Source: an uncultured virus (IMG/VR IMGVR_UViG_3300042484_001031) (Duplodnaviria; Heunggongvirae; Uroviricota; Caudoviricetes). From it: a stretch of 64,000 bases of DNA. The DNA lies in the IMG/VR virus record IMGVR_UViG_3300042484_001031, positions 1-64,000 of that record. One strand, 5' to 3'. Position numbers and translations under genes: made by a program. Of the stretch, positions 1,773-13,180 are shown in pieces. The notes below the pieces were generated by a model. It was not told the DNA's origin and searched no databases. It was given only the letters and a program-made list of their open reading frames with translations. The stretch's first letter is position 1. The number at the start of each line of letters is the position of its first letter.

Positions 1773-1827
1773 ATTTTATCATTTTAGTACTTTATACTAC
1801 ATAAAATACTTGATGATAAATATTGTT

Positions 1828-2424
1828 ATGACAACCTCCCTATATGATGATTTAGAATTACCAAAAACTTGCACCTCTGAAGAAATCAAACAAAAATACA
1901 GAATCTTAGCACAACTACATCATCCTGACAAGGGAGGGGATGTGGAAAAGTTCAAACGGATGAAATTGGCATACGAAGTGTTAAGTGACCCTATCAAACG
2001 TGAACACTATGATTCGACCGGTGATCATTATAATGATATTAACCTTGACAGTGAGGTTATGGGCAGATTAGCTGTTATGGTTTCACAGTTTGTTCAACAT
2101 ATTAATCCAGAGTTTGATGATTTAATACTAAAAATGAAAATTGAGATTCGTGCATTACAACAACTGACAACAAATGCTATTGTAGAATGTAATGATTTAA
2201 TTGCCAAATTTAACATTATTTCTAAAAAGATTAGATTAAAAAAAGAAGGCGAGAACTTGTTAAAGTTGGTAGTTGACAAAAAAGTATTAGGGCTTCATAA
2301 TGAAGTAATTAACCACAAAAGAGGTTTAATTGTTTTTGCTAGGATGTTAGAAGTATTAGACGATTATCACTACAGTAGTGATGAATGGCGATTACTACTA
2401 GAAAACGTTGATGGTCCGGCGTAG
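1828..2424 (+). CDS. DnaJ (J-domain) protein
   Basis: N-terminal J-domain LYDDLEL...HPDKGGD...AYEVLSDP; start moved to ATG 1828 after GATAAATA. Confidence 0.9.
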   Translation: MTTSLYDDLELPKTCTSEEIKQKYRILAQLHHPDKGGDVEKFKRMKLAYEVLSDPIKREHYDSTGDHYNDINLDSEVMGRLAVMVSQFVQHINPEFDDLILKMKIEIRALQQLTTNAIVECNDLIAKFNIISKKIRLKKEGENLLKLVVDKKVLGLHNEVINHKRGLIVFARMLEVLDDYHYSSDEWRLLLENVDGPA

Positions 2425-2690: not shown

Positions 2691-3251
2691 CTAACTTAAT
2701 AATATTCTACTATGTTTTGGAACTCCTGCTAACAAATATTCCATTTGATCAGCAAGAATTGTTCTATGTTGTAATATCATATTTTCGTAGTGGTTTGGGA
2801 TGTATGGTAAGTATAGTAATTCCATACGCACTTCTTTTAAACTCTTATGTCCTTTTTTGCTGTTACAATCTTTACATGCTGTAACAACATTCATCCAAGT
2901 ATTTTCACCACCTTTGCTTCTAGGGACAATGTGGTCACGACTTAACAGATGATAGTTTGGAAACTGTTCACCGCAATAAGCACATACATGTCTATCACGA
3001 CCAAACAATGTTTTATTAGTTAGTGCAACACATGAATGCTTGTATGGATTGAATCCATGACCTTTAATAGCAATAATGCTACTAGCTTCTAGGTAACTTA
3101 ATGTACCGTCATTTTGTATACCACCACGATATTTAGCTACAATATTACCCATTGACCAAGCGATGGCATCTTTTGCTTTATAGGTAATTGCGTCATCATT
3201 TGATATCCATTGCCGGGGAACTCCCGAGATATCTAGTGCTAGAACAGCCAT
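2691..3251 (-). CDS. HNH endonuclease (McrA-like)
   Basis: RDRHVCAYCG...DHIVPRSKGG...NVVTACKDCNSKK; SD AAGGAG before ATG 3251. Confidence 0.9.
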   Translation of the reverse strand: MAVLALDISGVPRQWISNDDAITYKAKDAIAWSMGNIVAKYRGGIQNDGTLSYLEASSIIAIKGHGFNPYKHSCVALTNKTLFGRDRHVCAYCGEQFPNYHLLSRDHIVPRSKGGENTWMNVVTACKDCNSKKGHKSLKEVRMELLYLPYIPNHYENMILQHRTILADQMEYLLAGVPKHSRILLS

Positions 3252-3298
3252 AGTGTACTCCTTTTCTGTTATTATCACTATATGTATTTAATGCCTAA

Positions 3299-4031: not shown

Positions 4032-4577
4032 TTAATTTGTTAAATAACAGTTGAATAATTGCAATGCAGTATTCCAATCTACCCATTCATTATTAATTGT
4101 CTTTAATTTTAAATTAACACACCATCTTTCATTTATTTGATTAGTGACATTGTGTGGCACAGCACCTTGAAATAAACAGGTGCCATTAATATTTCTAGAT
4201 TCTATGATTCTTAATTTAGTATTGTTGTATTTTCTTATAGTTGTAAACGGTGTTTTTATTACCTCGCCATTATATCCATCAACAGGTTTATACCAAAATA
4301 CTTTACTATTTGTACCACCAATAACCAAATTCAAATTAGTTTGATCGTACACATCATCGTCATCAATATGTATACGTGAAGGTTCATACGTTGCGGCGTA
4401 ATACAGTACAATACAATTAACTATTTTAATTTTTCCCGATGATTCAACTAAGTTGAATAATTCAGGATTTAAAATAATATGTGGATTAATTTTAATTATC
4501 TGTTTAACACTTGTTAAATCAAATTCCGTGTTAAGAAATGGAATCGGTAAATTTAATTTTTGAAAATTTCTAGACAT
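4032..4577 (-). CDS. cupin / Fe(II)-2OG oxygenase-like protein
   Basis: HxD (IHID) ... distal His (VPHNV) ... RWCV; start after TATAAATA. Confidence 0.6.
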   Translation of the reverse strand: MSRNFQKLNLPIPFLNTEFDLTSVKQIIKINPHIILNPELFNLVESSGKIKIVNCIVLYYAATYEPSRIHIDDDDVYDQTNLNLVIGGTNSKVFWYKPVDGYNGEVIKTPFTTIRKYNNTKLRIIESRNINGTCLFQGAVPHNVTNQINERWCVNLKLKTINNEWVDWNTALQLFNCYLTN

Positions 4578-4634
4578 TTTGTATTTATATACAATTGTGT
4601 TCTGTGGGCAGAACTGATAGTCTATACTATAAAC

Positions 4635-4712
4635 TGGCACCCCCTCAAGGATTTGAACCTCGGAGTGTCGGAATCAAAATCCGATGCCTTAGACCAACTT
4701 GGCGAAGGGGGT
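4635..4712 (-). tRNA. tRNA-Gln(TTG)
   Basis: TCGGA-TTTTGAT-TCCGA, CCA. Confidence 0.93.
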
Positions 4713-5049: not shown

Positions 5050-5125
5050 TGGTGGGACCAGGGCGGTTCGAACGCCCGACCAATGGATTAAAAGTCCACT
5101 GCTCTACCGACTGAGCTATGGTCCC
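5050..5125 (-). tRNA. tRNA-Lys(TTT)
   Basis: GTGGA-CTTTTAA-TCCAT, CCA. Confidence 0.95.
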
Positions 5126-5131
5126 ATATAT

Positions 5132-5208
5132 TGGTGCGACCGGAAGGACTTGAACCTCCGACTCCCTATTTCGTAGACAGGTACTCTAATCCACTGAGTT
5201 ACGGTCGC
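5132..5208 (-). tRNA. tRNA-Arg(ACG)
   Basis: CCTGT-CTACGAA-ATAGG, CCA. Confidence 0.95.
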
Positions 5209-5288
5209 ATTCTAAAACACACATAGTACACCCTAGTCAACAGGGTTGCCGCACAGGCCATACTGTTCAACTATGTATGCTTTAGAAT
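5209..5288 (-). ncRNA. long stem-loop element with structured head
   Basis: 19-bp stem whose two non-Watson-Crick pairs are G:U only on the minus strand; head contains GCC/GGC and ACCCTG/TAGGGT. Confidence 0.55.
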
Positions 5289-5430
5289 GCCCAGTATCAC
5301 TACCGGACATGATAGGGTCAATACCCTACCCAGTAGTCTTACTAACATGTTGTCTCCATGCTTTCATATATACTGTCCGCCCATTCTATACATTTAACGC
5401 TGTATTACGGCTCTCGTTGCCTATTCACGC
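5289..5430 (-). ncRNA. putative multibranch structured RNA (~140 nt)
   Basis: CAGTAT/ATACTG enclosing GCATG/CATGT and CTACTGG..TAGGGT/ACCCTA..CCGGTAG; ATACA/TGTAT hairpin. Confidence 0.5.
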
Positions 5431-5437
5431 TATCTAT

Positions 5438-5605
5438 TCAATCAGTATAAGTTAGTTGGTTAACTTTCTTAGTAGCCTCATGATGGACTTTAGCACGTTG
5501 AAATTTATCCTCTATCAACTGTGCTACTTGCTCCTTAGTCAAAACATGATTGCTAAACCAATCTTGTTTGTTTTCAGAAGTTTTGTATTCTATCTGTTCA
5601 TCCAT
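5438..5605 (-). CDS. small hypothetical protein (55 aa, MDEQIEYKTSENKQDWFSNH...)
   Basis: Manually translated, below the ORF-track cutoff; AGAGGA upstream; first ORF after the attenuator terminator. Confidence 0.5.
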   Translation of the reverse strand: MDEQIEYKTSENKQDWFSNHVLTKEQVAQLIEDKFQRAKVHHEATKKVNQLTYTD

Positions 5606-5615
5606 TTATTGTCAA
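5587..5615 (-). promoter_or_regulatory. possible sigma70-type promoter
   Basis: TTGACA-17-TAGAAT; overlaps the start of the 55-aa ORF. Confidence 0.55.
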
Positions 5616-5626
5616 ATCCTCTCTGT

Positions 5627-5666
5627 AAAAGCAAAAACCCCTGAGACTTTTTAGTTCCCAGGGGTT
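5627..5666 (-). terminator. intrinsic terminator (attenuator terminator)
   Basis: 11-bp stem AACCCCTGGGA/TCTCAGGGGTT followed by TTTGCTTTT. Confidence 0.85.
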
Positions 5667-5706
5667 AGATAAATGTGTTATGATGTTAACTTGTTACCTA
5701 GTCCCC
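5661..5706 (-). promoter_or_regulatory. antiterminator hairpin
   Basis: GGGG-AC-TAGGTAA pairs with TTATCTA-A-CCCC (plus inner GTTA/TAAC), sequestering the terminator 5' arm; contains the leader stop codon. Confidence 0.7.
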
Positions 5707-5831
5707 GGGGTTCTCTCTTGGTTATCATTTGAACCGCGAATACTTGTTGGATATGCTGGTACAAAGGATACACTGGCTAACGTTAGCCACTGTCCGGTAT
5801 GCTTCAGCATGTTACAAGTTTTATTCATCAT
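5694..5831 (-). CDS. putative attenuator leader peptide (45 aa)
   Basis: MMNKTCNMLKHTGQWLTLASVSFVPAYPTSIRGSNDNQERTPGTR*; all 20 amino acids; lies between a promoter and the terminator. Confidence 0.7.
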   Translation of the reverse strand: MMNKTCNMLKHTGQWLTLASVSFVPAYPTSIRGSNDNQERTPGTR

Positions 5832-5886
5832 AGTCTCTTATTTAGTCCTGGGTGTAAAAATTACACCTTTTTTCAATTCATGCTGA

Positions 5887-5915
5887 AGTATAGCACAAGT
5901 AGGCATTAATGTCAA
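5887..5915 (-). promoter_or_regulatory. sigma70-type promoter upstream of the leader
   Basis: TTGACA-17-TATACT with TGn extension. Confidence 0.8.
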
Positions 5916-5942
5916 CACTTTTTTCATTTATTTACCCAAAAA

Positions 5943-6530
5943 TTAGTCAAACTTGTTGGTGTCAATATCTACTATAATATGAATGCGATCATCATTGCTG
6001 TTATTTTCTACTCCGTGCAGTTGTCTATTCATTAATTGGCATAGGATTCCTTTCGGCATATGTATCGGCTTATTATCAGCCGGACCTATAAACAATACCT
6101 GACTATTAGTTGTTATCGGTACATGAAATCTGTGATATCTTTGAAAGTACAATCCAGTGTCTATATGTGGTATAACTCTACCACCCGGTAATAATTTAAC
6201 TACCATAATGCGTCCCAACTCTTTTCCATTAACTACAGAATAGCACCATTCAATCATGCTATTTATTTGAGGGTACATATATCTTACACTACTATCCTTA
6301 CATTCAATAATGTCTGATACAGCTTCACGTGTTCTTGGTGTATTTTGTTCTAATTTGTGTGTCCGAAGATGTGTTGTAATAGATGTTGCAAATACCGGAT
6401 CACGTTTTCTAAAATCCGAGATTACAGTGGTAGAATCCCAATTAATATTGTCAATTTCATTTTTAGTAGAATTGAATAATTCTGTTGGCACTGATTCTAT
6501 TAAACGAACATGATTTTCTTTTATAAACAT
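5943..6530 (-). CDS. aspartyl/asparaginyl beta-hydroxylase-like (AspH family) Fe(II)/2OG oxygenase
   Basis: RIMVVKLLPGGRVIPHID...RFHVPI...HGVENNSNDDRIHIIVD. Confidence 0.85.
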   Translation of the reverse strand: MFIKENHVRLIESVPTELFNSTKNEIDNINWDSTTVISDFRKRDPVFATSITTHLRTHKLEQNTPRTREAVSDIIECKDSSVRYMYPQINSMIEWCYSVVNGKELGRIMVVKLLPGGRVIPHIDTGLYFQRYHRFHVPITTNSQVLFIGPADNKPIHMPKGILCQLMNRQLHGVENNSNDDRIHIIVDIDTNKFD

Positions 6531-6589
6531 TGAGAACTATTTATATTAATATAAATACTATATATATTTGTGTACAAAGGAGTTACAAA

Positions 6590-7129
6590 ATGAGCGTAAT
6601 TACATTTTTTGCGGCCGCACCAGAATCTACCGTAAGTCAATCAGTTACTGAGGTTAATTCTATAGATTGGGATGGATCACCCATCGATGGTATTGAAATT
6701 GATAGTAATGATAACATCAAGGTTATGATGTTGTCACAACTGAACGATCTAGGTGATACTGTTGAAGAAATAAATAATACTGTAATATTTAATCAACTTA
6801 CCCCTTTACTTTATCCAGGAATTTATTCTTTAATAGATTGGCTAAAGAGTACAGTCGGAGCATCCTACATTGGAAAAACAAGAATTGTGGCATTATTACC
6901 GGGAAAAGGTATACCGGATCACATTAATAATAGTTCATATTACTCTAAGTATACCCGATATCATATTCCTCTAGTAACTCATTCTGATGTTAAAATTATA
7001 GAAACACTCACATCTACAGAAGAAAACATGTTAGTTGGTAACGTTTATACGTTATCTAATACAATAAGCCACAGTTTTAAAAATAATTCTAATATTACTA
7101 GGATACATCTTATAGTAGATTTGGCATGA
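6590..7129 (+). CDS. AspH-like Fe(II)/2OG oxygenase
   Basis: LLPGKGIPDHIN...RYHIPL...HSFKNNSNITRIHLIVD; SD AAGGAG before ATG 6590. Confidence 0.8.
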   Translation: MSVITFFAAAPESTVSQSVTEVNSIDWDGSPIDGIEIDSNDNIKVMMLSQLNDLGDTVEEINNTVIFNQLTPLLYPGIYSLIDWLKSTVGASYIGKTRIVALLPGKGIPDHINNSSYYSKYTRYHIPLVTHSDVKIIETLTSTEENMLVGNVYTLSNTISHSFKNNSNITRIHLIVDLA

Positions 7130-7653
7130 AATACAATTTTCTTTTTAAAAAAATACTAGATGTAGATGATAGTGTTTTAGATGTATTAGAGGATTATGCA
7201 ATGTCAGTTGAGTATGGGGATAATCTTGGTTTTTATAAGGGTAAAGGAATCAGAACACACATGATAGAAAACGTGTTAAACGTTCAACCGGCAATAGAAG
7301 CACTTTCAAATATTGTTAACCCTAACGGTTATTTAAATTCTTATATTAATATATTGCCAGCAAATCATTATATTTTTGAACATAGTGACGTGGGTGAGGG
7401 AAAATTCTTCAGTGATAATTTAACTATACACAAAATACATATTCCATTAATAACCAATCAATCATCTGGTCATATGTGGAAATGTTTTTATGAAGAAAAT
7501 AAACAGGTTGCCGTTAATTTTGAACGCGGTGCATCATATTTATTCAACAATATTGACATACATTCAGCCGTAAATTTTTCTTCTAGTGAAGATCGATATC
7601 ATTTAATTCTGAGATATCGACAGGATTCTATTGCAGAATCTTTTTACAGTTAA
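7126..7653 (+). CDS. AspH-like Fe(II)/2OG oxygenase
   Basis: EHSD...KIHIPL...HSAVNFS...DRYHLI. Confidence 0.8.
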   Translation: MKYNFLFKKILDVDDSVLDVLEDYAMSVEYGDNLGFYKGKGIRTHMIENVLNVQPAIEALSNIVNPNGYLNSYINILPANHYIFEHSDVGEGKFFSDNLTIHKIHIPLITNQSSGHMWKCFYEENKQVAVNFERGASYLFNNIDIHSAVNFSSSEDRYHLILRYRQDSIAESFYS

Positions 7654-8789
7654 TCTATCAAATTTCCCATATAATAATAACTAGAATCAATAGACGGAAA
7701 TTGTCCGTTTTTCATTACTACATTTGTAGTATCTAGTTTATTTAAATAAGAACTCCAATGATATCTCCATCCCTTTTTTATTTTCATAATTTCAGGATGT
7801 GTTTCTACTATAATATCAAATTGGCTCATATCATCTATTTCTCCTACAATAGGTTTTCTAACTTGAAATTTAGATATATCCCAGTCCGGGTATATTATGG
7901 GTTTTATTAATTCACTATACTTATCCCATCGTTCTGTATGTCGACCAATCCATTTTGGTTTATATAATAAGTCTTGATATTGCGGATTTCTTTTAAACCA
8001 TAAAAATACTTGATATGCTCTTTCTAATGCAAGTTCAGGAAAGTCAGGAGTCCAGAAAAAATATTCAGTACCATATGGATTAGTTACAGTTGGTGGGATA
8101 AGTACCATTGGTTTGTCAGGAAAAGTAGTGTATGCCTTATTGTCCTTAGCTAAGAGTACGGGCTTTTCTACTCCATTGATAACTCCGACCTTTTTCCCAC
8201 GTTCTATTAATTTTATTTCTATATCATTATTACTATGTTCCGGATGCTTTAGAATATATGACATAAAATACAATCCTCTATGTGATTGAAATTTGTCATC
8301 ACCGAAACTATTTGCTGTTATGCCATCAAGCCAATCGATTAATTTGATTTCTATTTCCGGATGGTATGTTGATATGTACTCAAGATCAGGTTTAATAATA
8401 TAATCCCATTCTGACAATTGATTTTTAGCTGATGTATCTATTAAATTTGGGTTATGTATTTTTTGATTAATCAAATTAAACGGTTGTTTAACCATTATCT
8501 GATCAAGTTTGATATTATTTTGTAGAAACGCCTGTAAAATACAATGACTATCACTACCACCGCTATATTGTAAAATTAGATAATCATATGAATCTCGTAG
8601 CATCTGGGCACGTTGTTTATATAATTCTTTAAGAGCCGTTCTACCTAATAGAGATTTATCAAAGTTTCTCCAAATATTATCATAGTAATGCCATTTAATG
8701 GGTAAACCTGTTTTAGATTTTTCTAAAAAGGCAAGCATTGAATTAGTAATTATTTTATCACCGACAGTATAATGTCCATACTTACTCAC
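7650..8789 (-). CDS. PP-loop (N-type ATP pyrophosphatase / adenine nucleotide alpha-hydrolase) protein
   Basis: LILQYSGGSDS PP-loop motif. Confidence 0.7.
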   Translation of the reverse strand: MSKYGHYTVGDKIITNSMLAFLEKSKTGLPIKWHYYDNIWRNFDKSLLGRTALKELYKQRAQMLRDSYDYLILQYSGGSDSHCILQAFLQNNIKLDQIMVKQPFNLINQKIHNPNLIDTSAKNQLSEWDYIIKPDLEYISTYHPEIEIKLIDWLDGITANSFGDDKFQSHRGLYFMSYILKHPEHSNNDIEIKLIERGKKVGVINGVEKPVLLAKDNKAYTTFPDKPMVLIPPTVTNPYGTEYFFWTPDFPELALERAYQVFLWFKRNPQYQDLLYKPKWIGRHTERWDKYSELIKPIIYPDWDISKFQVRKPIVGEIDDMSQFDIIVETHPEIMKIKKGWRYHWSSYLNKLDTTNVVMKNGQFPSIDSSYYYMGNLID

Positions 8790-9718
8790 TTAAAAATCCC
8801 TTCAAGCCTTTCTTTATTTGCCATCATATTATCAAGTCTTTTATTAATTGCCGGGATAGATAAATCAGAATTATTAAAATATATCTGATTCTGTGTCCAT
8901 ATTTCTTTCGCTTCGGGTGTTGACATAATTGTACTTAATTGCAAATTATATTGTGCAATTACTGATTTTGGTGTGCCTGCAGGAACCATTAATGCAATTG
9001 TACTATCAATAAATGATCCAAATCCTTTAAAGGTTTCTGCCACCGTAGGGATATCCGGTAACTCGTTAAGTCGGTTGTTATTAACTACTGCAATGATTTT
9101 TATACGATCATTCTTATGCAACATTCTAGCTGTACTTCCATTTAATATAGCAAATTCAACGTGTCCACCTGCTATATCAGTGCCCAACTGACCGGCCGAT
9201 TTATAAGGAACTACCGTAACTTGTTTGCTTCCCAAGTTTTCTGCTAGCTCGGTAGTCCAAGCTTTTACAATACCCGACATACTACCCAACGAAATGTTTT
9301 CTCCTGCATCAATTCTTTTTTGGATATCAGAAATAGTAGACGATTTGCTATTTGGAGCCGCTACTACCATAGATACTGCACGGCCAAGACTTATTACCAT
9401 TTCGAAATCCTGTCTTGTGTATGTCTTGTTTGATTTATACAATACATCTGATAGTACAAATGTGCTAGCAAGACCGCATAACATGAATGTGTTATTTTCA
9501 CCATGTTGTTTATAATAGTTTGCCGCAATTACTCCGTCAGCGCCAGGTTTACGGTTGAAAATTAAAGTAGTGTCTGGCATTTTCGAAAATAGGTATCGCA
9601 TTATATTAGTAGAAGAACCTCCCTCTCCTATAGCTGTAGTTACTGTAATTACTTCAGCCTGTGCTATACCTATTAAGGATAGTAGTATAATAGTAAATAT
9701 TTTTTTCATGTAAATCAT
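8786..9718 (-). CDS. tripartite tricarboxylate transporter substrate-binding protein (TctC/Bug family)
   Basis: Signal peptide; NRKPGADGVIA, VVPYKSAG, LPDIPTVAE and PAGTPKSVI motifs. Confidence 0.85.
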   Translation of the reverse strand: MIYMKKIFTIILLSLIGIAQAEVITVTTAIGEGGSSTNIMRYLFSKMPDTTLIFNRKPGADGVIAANYYKQHGENNTFMLCGLASTFVLSDVLYKSNKTYTRQDFEMVISLGRAVSMVVAAPNSKSSTISDIQKRIDAGENISLGSMSGIVKAWTTELAENLGSKQVTVVPYKSAGQLGTDIAGGHVEFAILNGSTARMLHKNDRIKIIAVVNNNRLNELPDIPTVAETFKGFGSFIDSTIALMVPAGTPKSVIAQYNLQLSTIMSTPEAKEIWTQNQIYFNNSDLSIPAINKRLDNMMANKERLEGIFK

Positions 9719-9778
9719 CCATCTATTTATTAAAGGATTTTGTCTACTATAAATATATGTAACATTGAAGTGAGAAAT

Positions 9779-11089
9779 ATGTTTTGTAAAACTATCTGGA
9801 ATGGGATTTATATTTTACCGTACGGTGATATTCGGCTGTGTTCTATTGGAAACAATTCCGATGCATCATTAGATATGAATACTGCTAGGGATGAGAACGG
9901 TGTTGCTATGAATATTCTTACTCATAGCATCAAGGAAATTGTTAATTCTAAAAAACATCTTGAGGTAAGAAAACTAAACATAGATGATCCAACGGCGTGG
10001 AGCCAGCATTGTTCTTGCTGTGAGAATAGGGAAATGGTTACTAAAAATAATGTATTACACCCTAATTCAAGTAGAAGGTTATATTTAAAACAGGTTATAA
10101 AATCAAACGACATAGTTACTGAATCAAACTGTACAGAAAAAGCCAGCGCAGATGGTAATATCGACTGGTATCCGAGTAGTTTAGATATACGATTTGGAAA
10201 TCTATGCAATCAAAAATGCGTAATGTGCAGTCCTATATATAGTAAACTATGGTATGATGAATATACTGAATACTATAAAACCAATCTATTTGGTAGCGGT
10301 ACAAATAATAAGAAAATTTCTTTAGTTAAAAATAACAACGGTCAATGGCAACAACCCAAAGAAATGGAATGGTACGAAGATCCAAGGTGGTGGCCAAAGT
10401 TTAAAGAAATGATGCCATATCTACGACACATTTATGTGACCGGGGGTGAGCCAATGATTGTACCATCGCACGATACAATGTTAGATATACTAATAGAGAA
10501 TGATTTAGCAAAGAACATAGTACTTGAGTATGATACAAATCTAACTGTCATTAATACAAAATTATTCCATCGTTGGAAACATTTTAATAAGGTGTTGATT
10601 CGTGTTAGTATGGATGCTATTAAAGAAAAATATAATTTAATTAGGTTTGGAGGTAACTGGGAAAAGTTTGTTGATAATATTGAAAAACTAAAAACATATG
10701 AAGAAGAATCCGAAGGACGAATTAAGATACAAGCAATCACCTCTTGTTTTCAAATCAGTACAGCATTGAATATTGTAGAATCAGAAGAATGGTGTAATAC
10801 TATGAAGTTGCCATTTCATATTAGGTTTTTAGATGGCCCTGACAAACATGCTACTATGTCACTACCCATTTCTGCAAAAGAAGAATTAATAGATTTTTAT
10901 TCAAATCATAATACAGAAAAATCAAAACTAATAGTAAATTATCTATCGGAGCACTTATATTCGACACGAGGATCAGTGGACGAGATACATTCATTTATTA
11001 ATTTCATGGATTTCCTTGACAATAGCAGATCAACTAACTGGAGAGAGACTCTTTCGGATATCCACACTTTCCTTGAAAGGCATAAATGA
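9779..11089 (+). CDS. radical SAM protein with N-terminal Cys-rich (SPASM/twitch-like) region
   Basis: CNQKCVMC, TGGEP, YDTN; N-terminal Cys pattern. Confidence 0.9.
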   Translation: MFCKTIWNGIYILPYGDIRLCSIGNNSDASLDMNTARDENGVAMNILTHSIKEIVNSKKHLEVRKLNIDDPTAWSQHCSCCENREMVTKNNVLHPNSSRRLYLKQVIKSNDIVTESNCTEKASADGNIDWYPSSLDIRFGNLCNQKCVMCSPIYSKLWYDEYTEYYKTNLFGSGTNNKKISLVKNNNGQWQQPKEMEWYEDPRWWPKFKEMMPYLRHIYVTGGEPMIVPSHDTMLDILIENDLAKNIVLEYDTNLTVINTKLFHRWKHFNKVLIRVSMDAIKEKYNLIRFGGNWEKFVDNIEKLKTYEEESEGRIKIQAITSCFQISTALNIVESEEWCNTMKLPFHIRFLDGPDKHATMSLPISAKEELIDFYSNHNTEKSKLIVNYLSEHLYSTRGSVDEIHSFINFMDFLDNSRSTNWRETLSDIHTFLERHK

Positions 11090-11673
11090 ATTATATACAT
11101 TTAGGTAAGGCCCCGCAATCATTTATTGAAAAAATACAAAAATTAATTGAATTAAAGCACGATACCAATGCCACATATGAATGGATAATGTTTGATTACG
11201 GCATGCAAGAAATATTTAATTCTGTGTTTCCTATCCCTGAACTAAAAATACAATATTTACCTAATAATGTAATAAATCAAAAAGCGTTTTTTTCTAGCCC
11301 ATTTAATGGTTTTAGACCACATAAAGATGGTATTGATTGTCAATGCGCTCTTAATATTGCCGTCTCATGTAATAAAGAAGATTGGGTAAGATGGTATGAT
11401 GAAGATTATATTAATAATATTTCAAGCACACATAGAAACAATACAACAGAATCTCATAGACATAGTAGAAACACAGACCTGCATGAATATGAGGATATCC
11501 CATTTATTGACGAAATGAGACAAAATATAGGTGATGTTTATTTAGTTAATACTAATGTTTATCATAGTTTCAAATGCTATGGACCACTTAATCGTATAAT
11601 TATACAGACTAAGCTTGAAGATAATCCTAATATTGTAGAAGTTTATGAAAATTTAAAATATTATTTTAAATAA
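11086..11673 (+). CDS. cupin / Fe(II)-2OG oxygenase-like protein
   Basis: PHKDG...ALNI...YHSF...R. Confidence 0.6.
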   Translation: MNYIHLGKAPQSFIEKIQKLIELKHDTNATYEWIMFDYGMQEIFNSVFPIPELKIQYLPNNVINQKAFFSSPFNGFRPHKDGIDCQCALNIAVSCNKEDWVRWYDEDYINNISSTHRNNTTESHRHSRNTDLHEYEDIPFIDEMRQNIGDVYLVNTNVYHSFKCYGPLNRIIIQTKLEDNPNIVEVYENLKYYFK

Positions 11674-12529
11674 CTAAATCAATATTTGCCCTATAGAAAT
11701 TGCGAATTTCGCCGGAATTCAGAATAAGTTTACTTCTATTATGAACAAAAGACCAATTATCATAAATTGCTATATCAAACGTGTCCCAAGTGTGATAGTA
11801 GGTACGATTTGGTATTTTTAATAATTCTTTAATATACGTTCCTATTAGAGAACAATCTGGTTGAAGTATATCATCAATTTTTACATTGCATATCCAAGCA
11901 TCCTTACATACTCCGGGTATATTATAGAAATTCAATCTTAATGATTTTTCTTTAGTGACAGGATGTTCTTTTATGAAATCAAATTCTTGCAAATCTTGTA
12001 GTGGTTTATGCTCAGGCCCAGATACTTTATACCAACTCTGTTGAATAATTTTAACTCTTGGGATTAGTTTTAAGAGTTCTTCATTCATATCTGTTAACGG
12101 AAGATTTATATTTAAAAACCCAGTTATACCTGAAATTTCAGGATTTGGATTTTGTGTAATCCAAAGACTACGAAACGGAAACGGGTTCTCTCTCTTATTA
12201 GGAATATCAGCATGCCATGGCATTGGTTGAACATTAAGTCTAGGAGCATTTATATTATTGAACGGGCTTAATACATAGTCACCCATAGGTGTAGTTATTG
12301 TTTCAGTTTTTTCTTGACTATATGAATAATCAGTTTTATTCCACATATTACCAAACTGTGAGCAGAACAAGGCATAATCTTCAACTGAAAAATTCATTTT
12401 TTTGAACACAAGTAATTTTCTAGCATATATCAATGATCTCCAAAAAGAAAAATCTTTGTTAAAAAAGTCTTTTGGATTTTCAAATTCTATTGTTGAACCC
12501 CAAGATTCATGTATGTTCTTTATTTTCAT
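11666..12529 (-). CDS. TauD/TfdA family Fe(II)/2OG dioxygenase
   Basis: WHAD...HPVT...HTWDTFDIAIYDNWSFVHNR. Confidence 0.9.
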   Translation of the reverse strand: MKIKNIHESWGSTIEFENPKDFFNKDFSFWRSLIYARKLLVFKKMNFSVEDYALFCSQFGNMWNKTDYSYSQEKTETITTPMGDYVLSPFNNINAPRLNVQPMPWHADIPNKRENPFPFRSLWITQNPNPEISGITGFLNINLPLTDMNEELLKLIPRVKIIQQSWYKVSGPEHKPLQDLQEFDFIKEHPVTKEKSLRLNFYNIPGVCKDAWICNVKIDDILQPDCSLIGTYIKELLKIPNRTYYHTWDTFDIAIYDNWSFVHNRSKLILNSGEIRNFYRANIDLVI

Positions 12530-12559
12530 ATTGGTTATTTTATATAGATAAATATCCAT

Positions 12560-13180
12560 ATGCATATATTAAATTCGCACAGTGACATATGTTATCCTAT
12601 TACACTGACTACAAACCTTAATAATTTAAATGAGTCAATATCAACACTATTTATTAGATTGGGTATTAGCAAAGAATTATTCTTTAAAGATTTAGAGAAA
12701 GCTTTGATAATTACACTAAATCTGTCTCATTTACCAACTTTGCAAGGAGCTGATAGGTGGAAAAAACATGCAGGAAATCACCCATCGGTTAAAGCTGAAT
12801 CAGTTTCTGAGATTGATTTTACACAGTTTCTTACTGAGATGGATGATCTTTATATTAAAAAAGTAATAGATGATATATTCACATACCATGAACTTAAATT
12901 TGGAAAGAAATTTCAAGGTAGGTGTCAATTGATTGCTAGTCGAGCACCTCAATGTTATAAAATACATAGAGATTTACATACTACCCATAGATATCATATA
13001 CCGTTAGAAACTGATGAAAGATTTTTATGGTTATTTGAAGATGATAATAAGGATATTACATTACTTCATATGCCAGCTGACGGTAGAATATGGTATCTAA
13101 ATCCAGTAACTGCTAAACATACAGTGATTCACGTAGGCTCATCAATTCGTTTTCATATTCTATTAACTAGCAGTGTTTAG
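12560..13180 (+). CDS. AspH-like Fe(II)/2OG oxygenase
   Basis: IHRD...RYHIPL...HMPADG...HTVIH..RFHI. Confidence 0.75.
   Translation: MHILNSHSDICYPITLTTNLNNLNESISTLFIRLGISKELFFKDLEKALIITLNLSHLPTLQGADRWKKHAGNHPSVKAESVSEIDFTQFLTEMDDLYIKKVIDDIFTYHELKFGKKFQGRCQLIASRAPQCYKIHRDLHTTHRYHIPLETDERFLWLFEDDNKDITLLHMPADGRIWYLNPVTAKHTVIHVGSSIRFHILLTSSV

Follow-up and report, generated by a model that had tools for sequence, protein, structure and literature searches.

We describe a leader element at the head of the transfer RNA (tRNA) array of an uncultured Caudoviricetes virus (IMG/VR record IMGVR_UViG_3300042484_001031), which is probably a ribosome-dependent leader-peptide transcription attenuator acting as a general sensor of decoding. 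The stretch analysed (hereafter the window) is 64,000 nucleotides (nt) long and forms the first 64 kilobases (kb) of a 137-kb viral contig; element coordinates refer to its minus strand unless stated. A sigma70-type promoter is followed by a 45-codon open reading frame (ORF) and then by an intrinsic terminator, and the last codons and stop codon of the ORF can pair with the strand that forms the terminator 5' arm. Both helices covary among relatives, and the complete set of 20 amino acids in the leader peptide has, judging from its distribution across the family, very probably been kept by selection. Along the minus strand, the order is a 195-amino-acid (aa) ORF, promoter P1, a 5' stem-loop, box A, the leader ORF, the terminator, promoter P2, a 55-aa ORF and the tRNA array. 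The parts of the leader region are:

5915-5887 (minus strand): promoter P1, sigma70-type, TTGACA-17-TGcTATACT with an extended -10 element (TG), consensus score 11/12.
5868-5850 (minus strand): 5' stem-loop of the leader transcript, GGTGTAA...TTACACC.
5851-5838 (minus strand): box A, a near-invariant motif of the 5' untranslated region (5'UTR), CCAGGACTAAATAA, found as invariant columns in an alignment of 41 sequences.
5831-5694 (minus strand): leader ORF, 45 codons of 36 kinds, ending in TAA and covering all 20 amino acids.
5709-5694 (minus strand): box B, the 5' strand of the antiterminator, CCCGGGG-AC-TAGGTAA, made of the final leader codons and the stop codon.
5672-5657 (minus strand): box C, TTATCTA-AC-CCCTGGG, the 3' strand of the antiterminator and 5' arm of the terminator.
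5666-5627 (minus strand): intrinsic terminator, stem AACCCCTGGGA/TCTCAGGGGTT followed by TTTTTGCTTTT, folding energy (dG) -18.1 to -18.2.

The promoter, the ORF ending in TAA and the terminator were all recovered where a preliminary description of this DNA had placed them, and 21 nt separate the leader stop codon from the terminator. The pairing that it proposed, of GGGGACTAGGTAA with TTATCTAACCCC, also exists, and a better register is longer: box B with box C over 14 base pairs (bp). This antiterminator occupies most of the terminator 5' arm and, because the two helices share the box C strand, they are mutually exclusive. A CTAAATA motif, listed beside the promoter in the same description, is present at 5845-5839 but is not enriched (20 sites in the window vs 24.3 expected), and we rejected it as a late promoter on that ground.

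We compared the leader with the codon usage of 69 long ORFs of the contig, in which the G+C fraction at third codon positions (GC3) is 0.20. The ORF has 36 distinct codons and 20 amino acids, as had been claimed, the Thr, Leu, Arg, Gly, Ser, Lys and Gln codons that had been listed are all readable in it, and its G/C-ending codons are indeed unusual for this genome (GC3 0.42). In 200,000 random 45-codon draws from contig usage, distinct codons averaged 26.5 (standard deviation, sd, 2.3), none of the draws (0/200,000) reached 36, and all 20 amino acids occurred in 0.19% (P = 0.0019). Among 870 real 45-codon windows, none had at least 36 codons and 0.34% had 20 amino acids. Neither the codon diversity of the window ORF nor its amino-acid completeness thus matched random expectation. 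Part of the codon excess arises because the peptide itself demands it: with the peptide fixed, 30.1 codons are expected under genome usage and 33.4 under uniform synonymous usage (P = 0.12), against the observed 36, and the family mean of 35.05 compares with 30.2 and 33.5, respectively. The robust oddity is the complete amino-acid set together with the loss of the genome's codon bias; selection for additional synonymous codons cannot be shown. The leader contains no codon runs, no single amino acid is enriched in it, and eight amino acids occur once.

Completeness extends to the family: of its 60 distinct trimmed peptides, 43-57 aa long, 53 are complete and seven have 17-19 amino acids. At 44-45 residues, an independent draw from the family composition contains every amino acid with P = 0.014-0.017, and shuffling within alignment columns gives 3.7 (sd 1.5) complete peptides of 16 divergent members vs 12 observed. 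We also used a tree-aware null, in which the window peptide was evolved along the maximum-likelihood (ML) tree of the family under the LG model with per-site rates, in five settings of 2000 replicates each. The base setting left 19.1 (sd 7.1) of 59 leaves complete, rates scaled to match or undershoot the real divergence left 23-27, and ML site rates left 14-20. The maximum over all settings was 49 vs 50 observed over the same columns, so that 0/2000 replicates reached 50 in any setting, in simulations that rely on a generic LG model, which ignores site-specific preferences, and on a tree from a 45-residue alignment. As a control, members of the neighbouring 55-aa ORF family have 16-18 amino-acid types, and none of 25 is complete.

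Single-copy residues of the leader relocate instead of disappearing. Glu is found at four different places in the family peptides and Val at five; H11 is lost in five members and His is regained elsewhere in four of these; Cys is regained in P0027; and in P0025 and the TENQR clade Asp has moved into the N-terminal half. These patterns bear on a plainer explanation, namely an ordinary gene for a small early protein, strongly expressed and insulated by its terminator from the P2/tRNA unit. Its B:C helix would be non-regulatory 3' messenger RNA (mRNA) structure, and its completeness would be a consequence of a conserved peptide of even composition. Conserved positions do hold most of the single-copy residues (C6, H11, W15, F23, Y27 and I31), as such a gene would have them, and a consensus promoter of its own with a strong terminator would yield a discrete transcript. 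Against this, completeness lies above both the column-shuffle and the tree-aware null, and residues move (Glu among its four places, His in four of five losses, Cys in P0027). We regard an ordinary gene as unlikely. One clade (L024, L073 and P0014) has lost one to three amino acids (D, V, C), and L073 also carries an antiterminator mismatch; these losses may reflect relaxed constraint or decay.

Relatives were collected in two ways. The 55-aa ORF retrieved 20 viral loci, all of which (20/20) carry the homologous promoter, ORF and terminator at 72-94% DNA identity, and a degenerate DNA pattern of the leader peptide motif retrieved 52 loci (53 including the window), where the same arrangement is kept in 53/53. 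The architecture was thereby found upstream of tRNA arrays in more than 50 viral contigs: tRNA genes lie on the same strand in 46/46 loci whose downstream sequence extends for 700 nt or more, the first of them 260-1427 nt past the leader stop, and a P1-like match of at least 10/12 lies no more than 140 nt upstream of the leader in 53/53 loci. The 5' hairpin is kept at variable length (for example, GTGCAAA/TTTGCAC in L008 vs GTGTAAA/TTTACAC in L004), and the flank upstream of P1 is not conserved beside the leader. The leader ORF is intact in 21/21 and 53/53 loci despite in-frame insertions and deletions (indels), which extend it to 57 codons in L016. Its ratio of nonsynonymous to synonymous differences (pN/pS) is 0.42 in the 21-locus set and 0.50 in the 53-locus set, with 13/13/23 variable columns at codon positions 1/2/3. 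From these evolutionary signs of coding (intactness, in-frame indels and pN/pS), we infer that the leader is translated. Exhaustive protein searches returned only small homologues of 38-59 aa, none of them named, and two long matches (P0015 and P0023) were discarded as spurious (a WD40 repeat protein and a repeat sequence). The 45-aa peptide matched no Pfam or PHROG family, which speaks against an ordinary gene, and a phage collection gave no match to the DNA of 5400-6100 or, by tblastn, to the 55-aa ORF.

Both helices are supported by covariation in the family alignment, in which we counted paired and doubly changed alignment cells and compared the double changes with 500 shuffles. The terminator is paired in 99.3% of cells and has 16 double-change cells vs 4.1 in shuffles, with 0/500 shuffles reaching 16. 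The antiterminator, across 41 sequences, is paired in 88.5% of cells vs 22-65% with its partner slid, and has 14 double-change cells vs 3.3 in shuffles, with 0/500 reaching 14. Pair 183:253 changes from C-G to U-A in three lineages (L024, L027/L059 and L048), pair 201:243 from G-C to A-U in seven sequences (the RGTE clade), and L016 keeps the helix with replaced letters (GGGG-AG-TTTCATA with TATGAAA-CCCC). The ORF and the antiterminator pairing are therefore both conserved in relatives, the latter with compensatory changes, and the two competing structures are of similar strength (antiterminator segment -19.7 vs terminator about -18.2 kcal/mol). In 39/41 sequences box B ends with the stop codon as its final three nt; in the other two the stop lies 8-14 nt further on, still 13-18 nt ahead of box C. 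An ordinary gene with an incidental 3' structure would not be expected to close a covarying, terminator-competing helix with its stop codon in 39/41 relatives, nor to change one position jointly in boxes A and B, still paired with box D, as happens in L024.

Box A resembles box B (CCCGGGGACTAGGTAA, the ORF-end strand) and complements box C, and because boxes A and B are alike, both are able to pair with that same downstream strand. The box A:box C pairing is formed in 84.5% of cells, with weak covariation; box A pairs with box C, not with box B, and competes with box B in folding. Box A may antiterminate when no ribosome loads, or may get covered by a following ribosome.

Another reading places the function in the RNA and not in the ORF: the locus would be an RNA element, non-coding or acting from both strands, for instance a small RNA, or a type I toxin-antitoxin-like pair that includes an antisense transcript. 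In its favour, the whole leader transcript folds better than shuffles (z = -4.2) and its UTR blocks are near-invariant. On the plus strand, TTCCCA-18-TGtTATGAT at 5655-5684 resembles a promoter and a hairpin at 5850-5868 resembles a terminator, and in the main clade the 5' and 3' ends can pair (TATGATG/CATCATA). Yet the ORF is kept through in-frame indels in 53/53 loci with a coding pattern of substitution, the 5'-3' pairing shows no covariation and has disappeared from the divergent clade, 17/21 loci have an open antisense 68-aa ORF that is broken in the other 4/21, and Rfam gave no match, to T-box or to any other curated RNA family, within 5620-5915 at E-values up to 1. We consider an RNA element of this sort very improbable. 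A type I toxin-antitoxin system was rejected on three grounds: the leader peptide lacks the hydrophobic character of type I toxins, the promoter-like site for the antisense strand is a consensus match only, and the 5'-3' pairing is not conserved. ORF-enclosing pairing as a structure (TATGATG/CATCATA and AACTTGT/ACAAGTT) was likewise discarded for its lack of covariation and its loss in the divergent clade. The plus-strand promoter-like and terminator-like sites would bracket an antisense RNA spanning the whole leader ORF.

We then modelled the window transcript from its predicted start, cut before the terminator 3' arm, with a ribosome footprint of 28 nt. Folding with and without the footprint reproduced, in this model, the switch logic of the preliminary description. 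The inner antiterminator helix had a probability of 0.97 without a ribosome, 0.85-0.97 with the footprint at codons 1-37 (0.49 at codon 25) and 0.00 with the footprint at codons 41-46, which places the switch point between codons 37 and 41. Across the 41 sequences, the terminator 5' arm paired with the ORF end at a probability of at least 0.5 in 26 without a ribosome, and at no more than 0.06 in 39 with a ribosome at the stop. In the remaining sequences box A was the winning partner, as it was in the window once the 5' hairpin was omitted.

Beyond the terminator, the following features bear on what a switch could control; the last of the lines gives the ORF upstream of P1:

5615-5587 (minus strand): promoter P2, sigma70-type, TTGACA-17-TAGAAT, consensus score 11/12.
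5605-5438 (minus strand): 55-aa ORF, its ATG lying between the -35 and -10 of P2.
5208 down to 412 (minus strand): tRNA array, with 19 genes called by ARAGORN and one Rfam-only tRNA, interspersed with ORFs and further promoters.
6530-5943 (minus strand): 195-aa hydroxylase-like ORF, Pfam Asp_Arg_Hydrox.

The tRNA array had been placed directly after the terminator; instead, P2 and the 55-aa ORF intervene, and the first tRNA begins at 5208. P2 scores at least 10/12 in 49/53 loci, and we take it to be a real promoter because its hexamers persist while the start of the overlapping 55-aa ORF varies (ATG, TTG or an upstream ATG). Since P2 is kept after the terminator, the tRNAs do not depend on read-through. 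Within the array lie four further sigma70-consensus promoters scoring 11-12/12, one of them a perfect 12/12 (3409-3381, 1772-1744, 1691-1663 and 722-694, minus strand), which bears out an earlier caveat that internal promoters could bypass the control. The array is probably transcribed as several units, and the proposal that its tRNAs are made only on demand is not supported by this arrangement. An ordinary early gene would fit here, in that P2 renders the downstream unit independent.

The 55-aa ORF is different in this respect. Judging by its alignment and substitution pattern, it is a genuine small protein family, with W16, Q26, L30 and K34 invariant, a pN/pS of 0.57 and an AlphaFold2 (AF2) model of two helices at a predicted local distance difference test score (pLDDT) of 80. 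No Pfam family matched it, an Atlas search gave one unnamed cluster (score 0.76), and a PDB profile search gave nothing meaningful. Because its start lies upstream of the P2 start site, it is translatable only from transcripts that pass the terminator, and a Shine-Dalgarno-like GAGG or AAGGAG stands directly ahead of the P2 -35. As the 55-aa ORF needs read-through, the terminator must be passed at a useful rate, a dependence that an insulated ordinary gene leaves unexplained. From this layout, the directly controlled product would probably be the 55-aa ORF; a second output would be added transcription of the first tRNA cluster. Metatranscriptome contigs of relatives from two studies bridge the terminator (X19 record 1, 5352-5765; X22 record 8, 5488-5768) and are weak evidence of read-through, since contigs cannot show transcript ends or regulation and DNA carry-over is possible; nothing is concluded from the gaps in their cover at 5100-5303 and beyond 5950. 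In L027, L059, L051 and L064, P2 and the 55-aa ORF are missing and a G+C-rich stretch follows the terminator instead; in L027/L059 tRNA-Gln starts 260 nt past the leader stop.

The leader peptide is itself conserved. Codons 22-33 (S-F-V-P-A-Y-P-T-S-I-R-G; motif F-x-P-x-Y-P-T/S-S-I-R-G) have a pN/pS of 0.18 with a pS of 0.22, and W15 and G43 are invariant. The leader is not codon content alone, the motif being under purifying selection at the protein level. Such selection, with a near-invariant motif and two invariant residues, is what an ordinary protein gene would show. For our reading it points to a role of the peptide itself, exerted either in trans or within the exit tunnel at the time when box B lies under the ribosome, possibly as an added layer. 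A further alternative takes this role as the whole of the mechanism: W15 and the F-x-P-x-Y-P-T-S-I-R-G motif would act in the exit tunnel as a nascent-peptide arrest sensor, holding or slowing the ribosome close to the stop, with a ligand as a possible trigger, so that this hold and not tRNA supply would set termination, with completeness being secondary. The motif is conserved as protein while its synonymous sites vary, G43 is invariant, and the motif lies 13-24 residues before the stop, which by the length of the ribosome exit tunnel would put it in the tunnel when the ribosome covers box B. An arrest peptide nevertheless leaves the retention and relocation of all 20 amino acids unexplained, and it is compatible with a decoding sensor rather than a replacement for it; as the sole mechanism we judge it distinctly improbable. 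The IRG of the motif bears a likeness to the SecM motif; no similarity to a known arrest peptide was found, no test aimed at one having been made.

The mechanism that we favour, a ribosome-dependent attenuator, would run as follows. P1 would start a transcript carrying the 45-codon ORF that uses every amino acid, and box B would be able to pair over 14 bp with box C, which doubles as the 5' arm of the intrinsic terminator. When the lead ribosome has arrived at the final codons or the stop by the time the polymerase is making box C and the 3' arm, it would cover box B, the terminator would form and a discrete transcript of ~250 nt would be released. When the ribosome is absent or held within codons 1 to ~38, as any charged tRNA runs short or under translation stress, boxes B and C would pair, the terminator would not form and the polymerase would continue. 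Read-through would then supply the 55-aa ORF, which is not translatable from P2 transcripts, and added transcription of the first tRNA cluster. We infer from this geometry that the position of the ribosome decides termination. As to purpose, it is conceivable, though we offer it tentatively, that the leader is a complete decoding test, with at least one codon for each amino acid and little bias, by which any limiting tRNA or amino acid (for example, through a host anticodon nuclease) is detected early and answered with read-through into a 55-aa effector and phage tRNAs as an inducible counter-measure.

A number of observations weigh against the attenuator as just set out. Leader translation and regulated read-through are deduced from signs in the sequence, and the leader has no good Shine-Dalgarno sequence (AAGAG here, AAAGA in most relatives). 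Seven of the 60 family peptides lack one to three amino acids, the tree-aware null carries the caveats of model and tree given above, and codon diversity, once the peptide is given, exceeds uniform synonymous usage only slightly (35.05 vs 33.5). The protein-level conservation of codons 22-33 would be unneeded by a pure codon-content sensor. With P2 and the in-array promoters as predicted, most tRNA transcription need not traverse the switch. On the structural side, box C has a further possible partner in box A of the 5'UTR, 15 of the 41 sequences prefer partners other than the ORF end for the terminator 5' arm, and with a ribosome at the stop and box B masked, the CCCC of box C is still paired in half of the ensemble. 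At equilibrium the full-length RNA takes the terminator form with a probability of 0.96, which means that only a kinetic switch, of the sort that known attenuators use, could work. What stands of the attenuator interpretation in the preliminary description is carried by the conserved architecture, the covariation, the stop codon in box B, the footprint model, the completeness and the tRNA context; exclusive control of the tRNAs is not supported, and the link to host anticodon nucleases is conjectural.

Among known systems, the amino-acid operon leaders trpL, hisL, leuL, thrL, pheL and ilv have a promoter and a brief leader that is translated, and their antiterminator and terminator hairpins compete for a common strand, so that ribosome position chooses between them. 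The phage element likewise has a promoter, a short ORF, a terminator, a strand-sharing antiterminator and a stop codon placed in box B. The classic leaders carry runs of one or a few regulatory codons, control matching biosynthetic genes and use a 1:2 structure by which no translation means termination. Unlike the trp/his type, the phage leader is without codon runs, holds all 20 amino acids and precedes tRNAs; moreover, no anti-antiterminator was found, the model without a ribosome forms the antiterminator (0.97), and box A is a second partner of box C.

By analogy, the element probably works most like the upstream ORF (uORF) attenuator of whiB7 (wblC) in mycobacteria and Streptomyces. In the whiB7 literature, efficient uORF translation is reported to lead to termination and poor translation to an antiterminator and read-through. 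The uORF is described there as a sensor of general translation stress, with many amino-acid, tRNA and synthetase deficiencies inducing read-through, and the amino acids present set what is sensed: when Trp or His codons were removed, the response to that starvation was gone. The M. smegmatis uORF is given as holding every amino acid but cysteine, and the uORF as species-variable, alanine-enriched and often incomplete. As in whiB7, a uORF stands ahead of an intrinsic terminator, and both the model and the architecture here would fit translation-dependent antitermination. The phage element differs in belonging to a phage and not a bacterium, in having tRNA genes and a two-helix 55-aa ORF downstream instead of a WhiB-type regulator with positive feedback, and in keeping the full set of 20 in 53/60 members with no amino acid enriched. 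The toiL uORF of E. coli topAI-yjhQ is described as a multipurpose sensor in which stalls at different positions remodel the downstream RNA under many translation stresses. The phage leader would similarly be a multipurpose sensory uORF in our reading, and unlike it toiL uses ribosome-binding-site occlusion and Rho-dependent termination in place of an intrinsic terminator and is not linked to tRNA genes. Nothing suggests common descent with whiB7, and we do not count the phage element among the whiB7 or toiL families by descent.

Phage tRNA genes have been presented as an escape from tRNA-cutting host defences such as PARIS, retrons and anticodon nucleases (PMC10264068, PMC11464382, PMC11555353). 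The abstract openings of those papers concern the tRNAs themselves and make no mention of translation-sensing control of an array; on that view, depleted host tRNAs might give a phage reason to want more of its own. In the full-text literature that was searched, which largely leaves out subscription journals, we found neither a translation-sensing control of a phage tRNA array nor the combination of 'all 20 amino acids' with a leader peptide or attenuator. That such a device had not been described before therefore holds for phages in the literature searched, but not in general, since bacteria have, in whiB7, a uORF attenuator that senses translation broadly.

The textbook leader-peptide attenuator senses one amino acid, and the whiB7 uORF showed that a diverse leader senses stress broadly. 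This virus appears to push the diverse-leader design to its limit, with every amino acid kept, at the head of tRNA genes, in a clade of uncultured giant lake phages. If that is true, phages would monitor host decoding capacity and tune expression to it, the old question of what phage tRNA arrays are for would gain a testable handle, and the element would offer a small natural module for reporting that any amino acid or tRNA has run short. Selection for completeness here, which we hold to be highly probable, would also make the amino-acid completeness of a peptide a trait selectable in itself.

Several minor observations concern the surroundings of the element. We take the source to be a giant phage because the 137-kb contig is estimated to be only 40% complete. 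Upstream of P1, used as a query, the 195-aa ORF retrieved no related viral loci; it belongs to a region (5943-12565) with hydroxylase-like (cupin/AspH) ORFs, a PP-loop (SGGxDS) ORF, a periplasmic-binding-like ORF and a Cys-rich 449-aa ORF, labels that were read from translations, with the 195-aa ORF alone checked against Pfam. Inside the tRNA array are an HNH endonuclease ORF (2691-3278, minus strand), a DnaJ-domain ORF (1810-2424, plus strand) and a 202-aa ORF (4032-4640) for which no family was found. The Rfam-only tRNA (963-882, minus strand; 33.1 bits), which ARAGORN did not call, lies between tRNA-Glu and tRNA-Asp at a position that matches tRNA-Tyr of L008. One viral contig, 524,565 bases long, has the whole module of leader, terminator, 55-aa ORF and tRNAs twice, as diverged copies (L014/L053 and L017/L035) ~290 kb apart, and represents either two arrays in one genome or a chimeric assembly. 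Near-identical DNA is present in lake and freshwater metagenomes.

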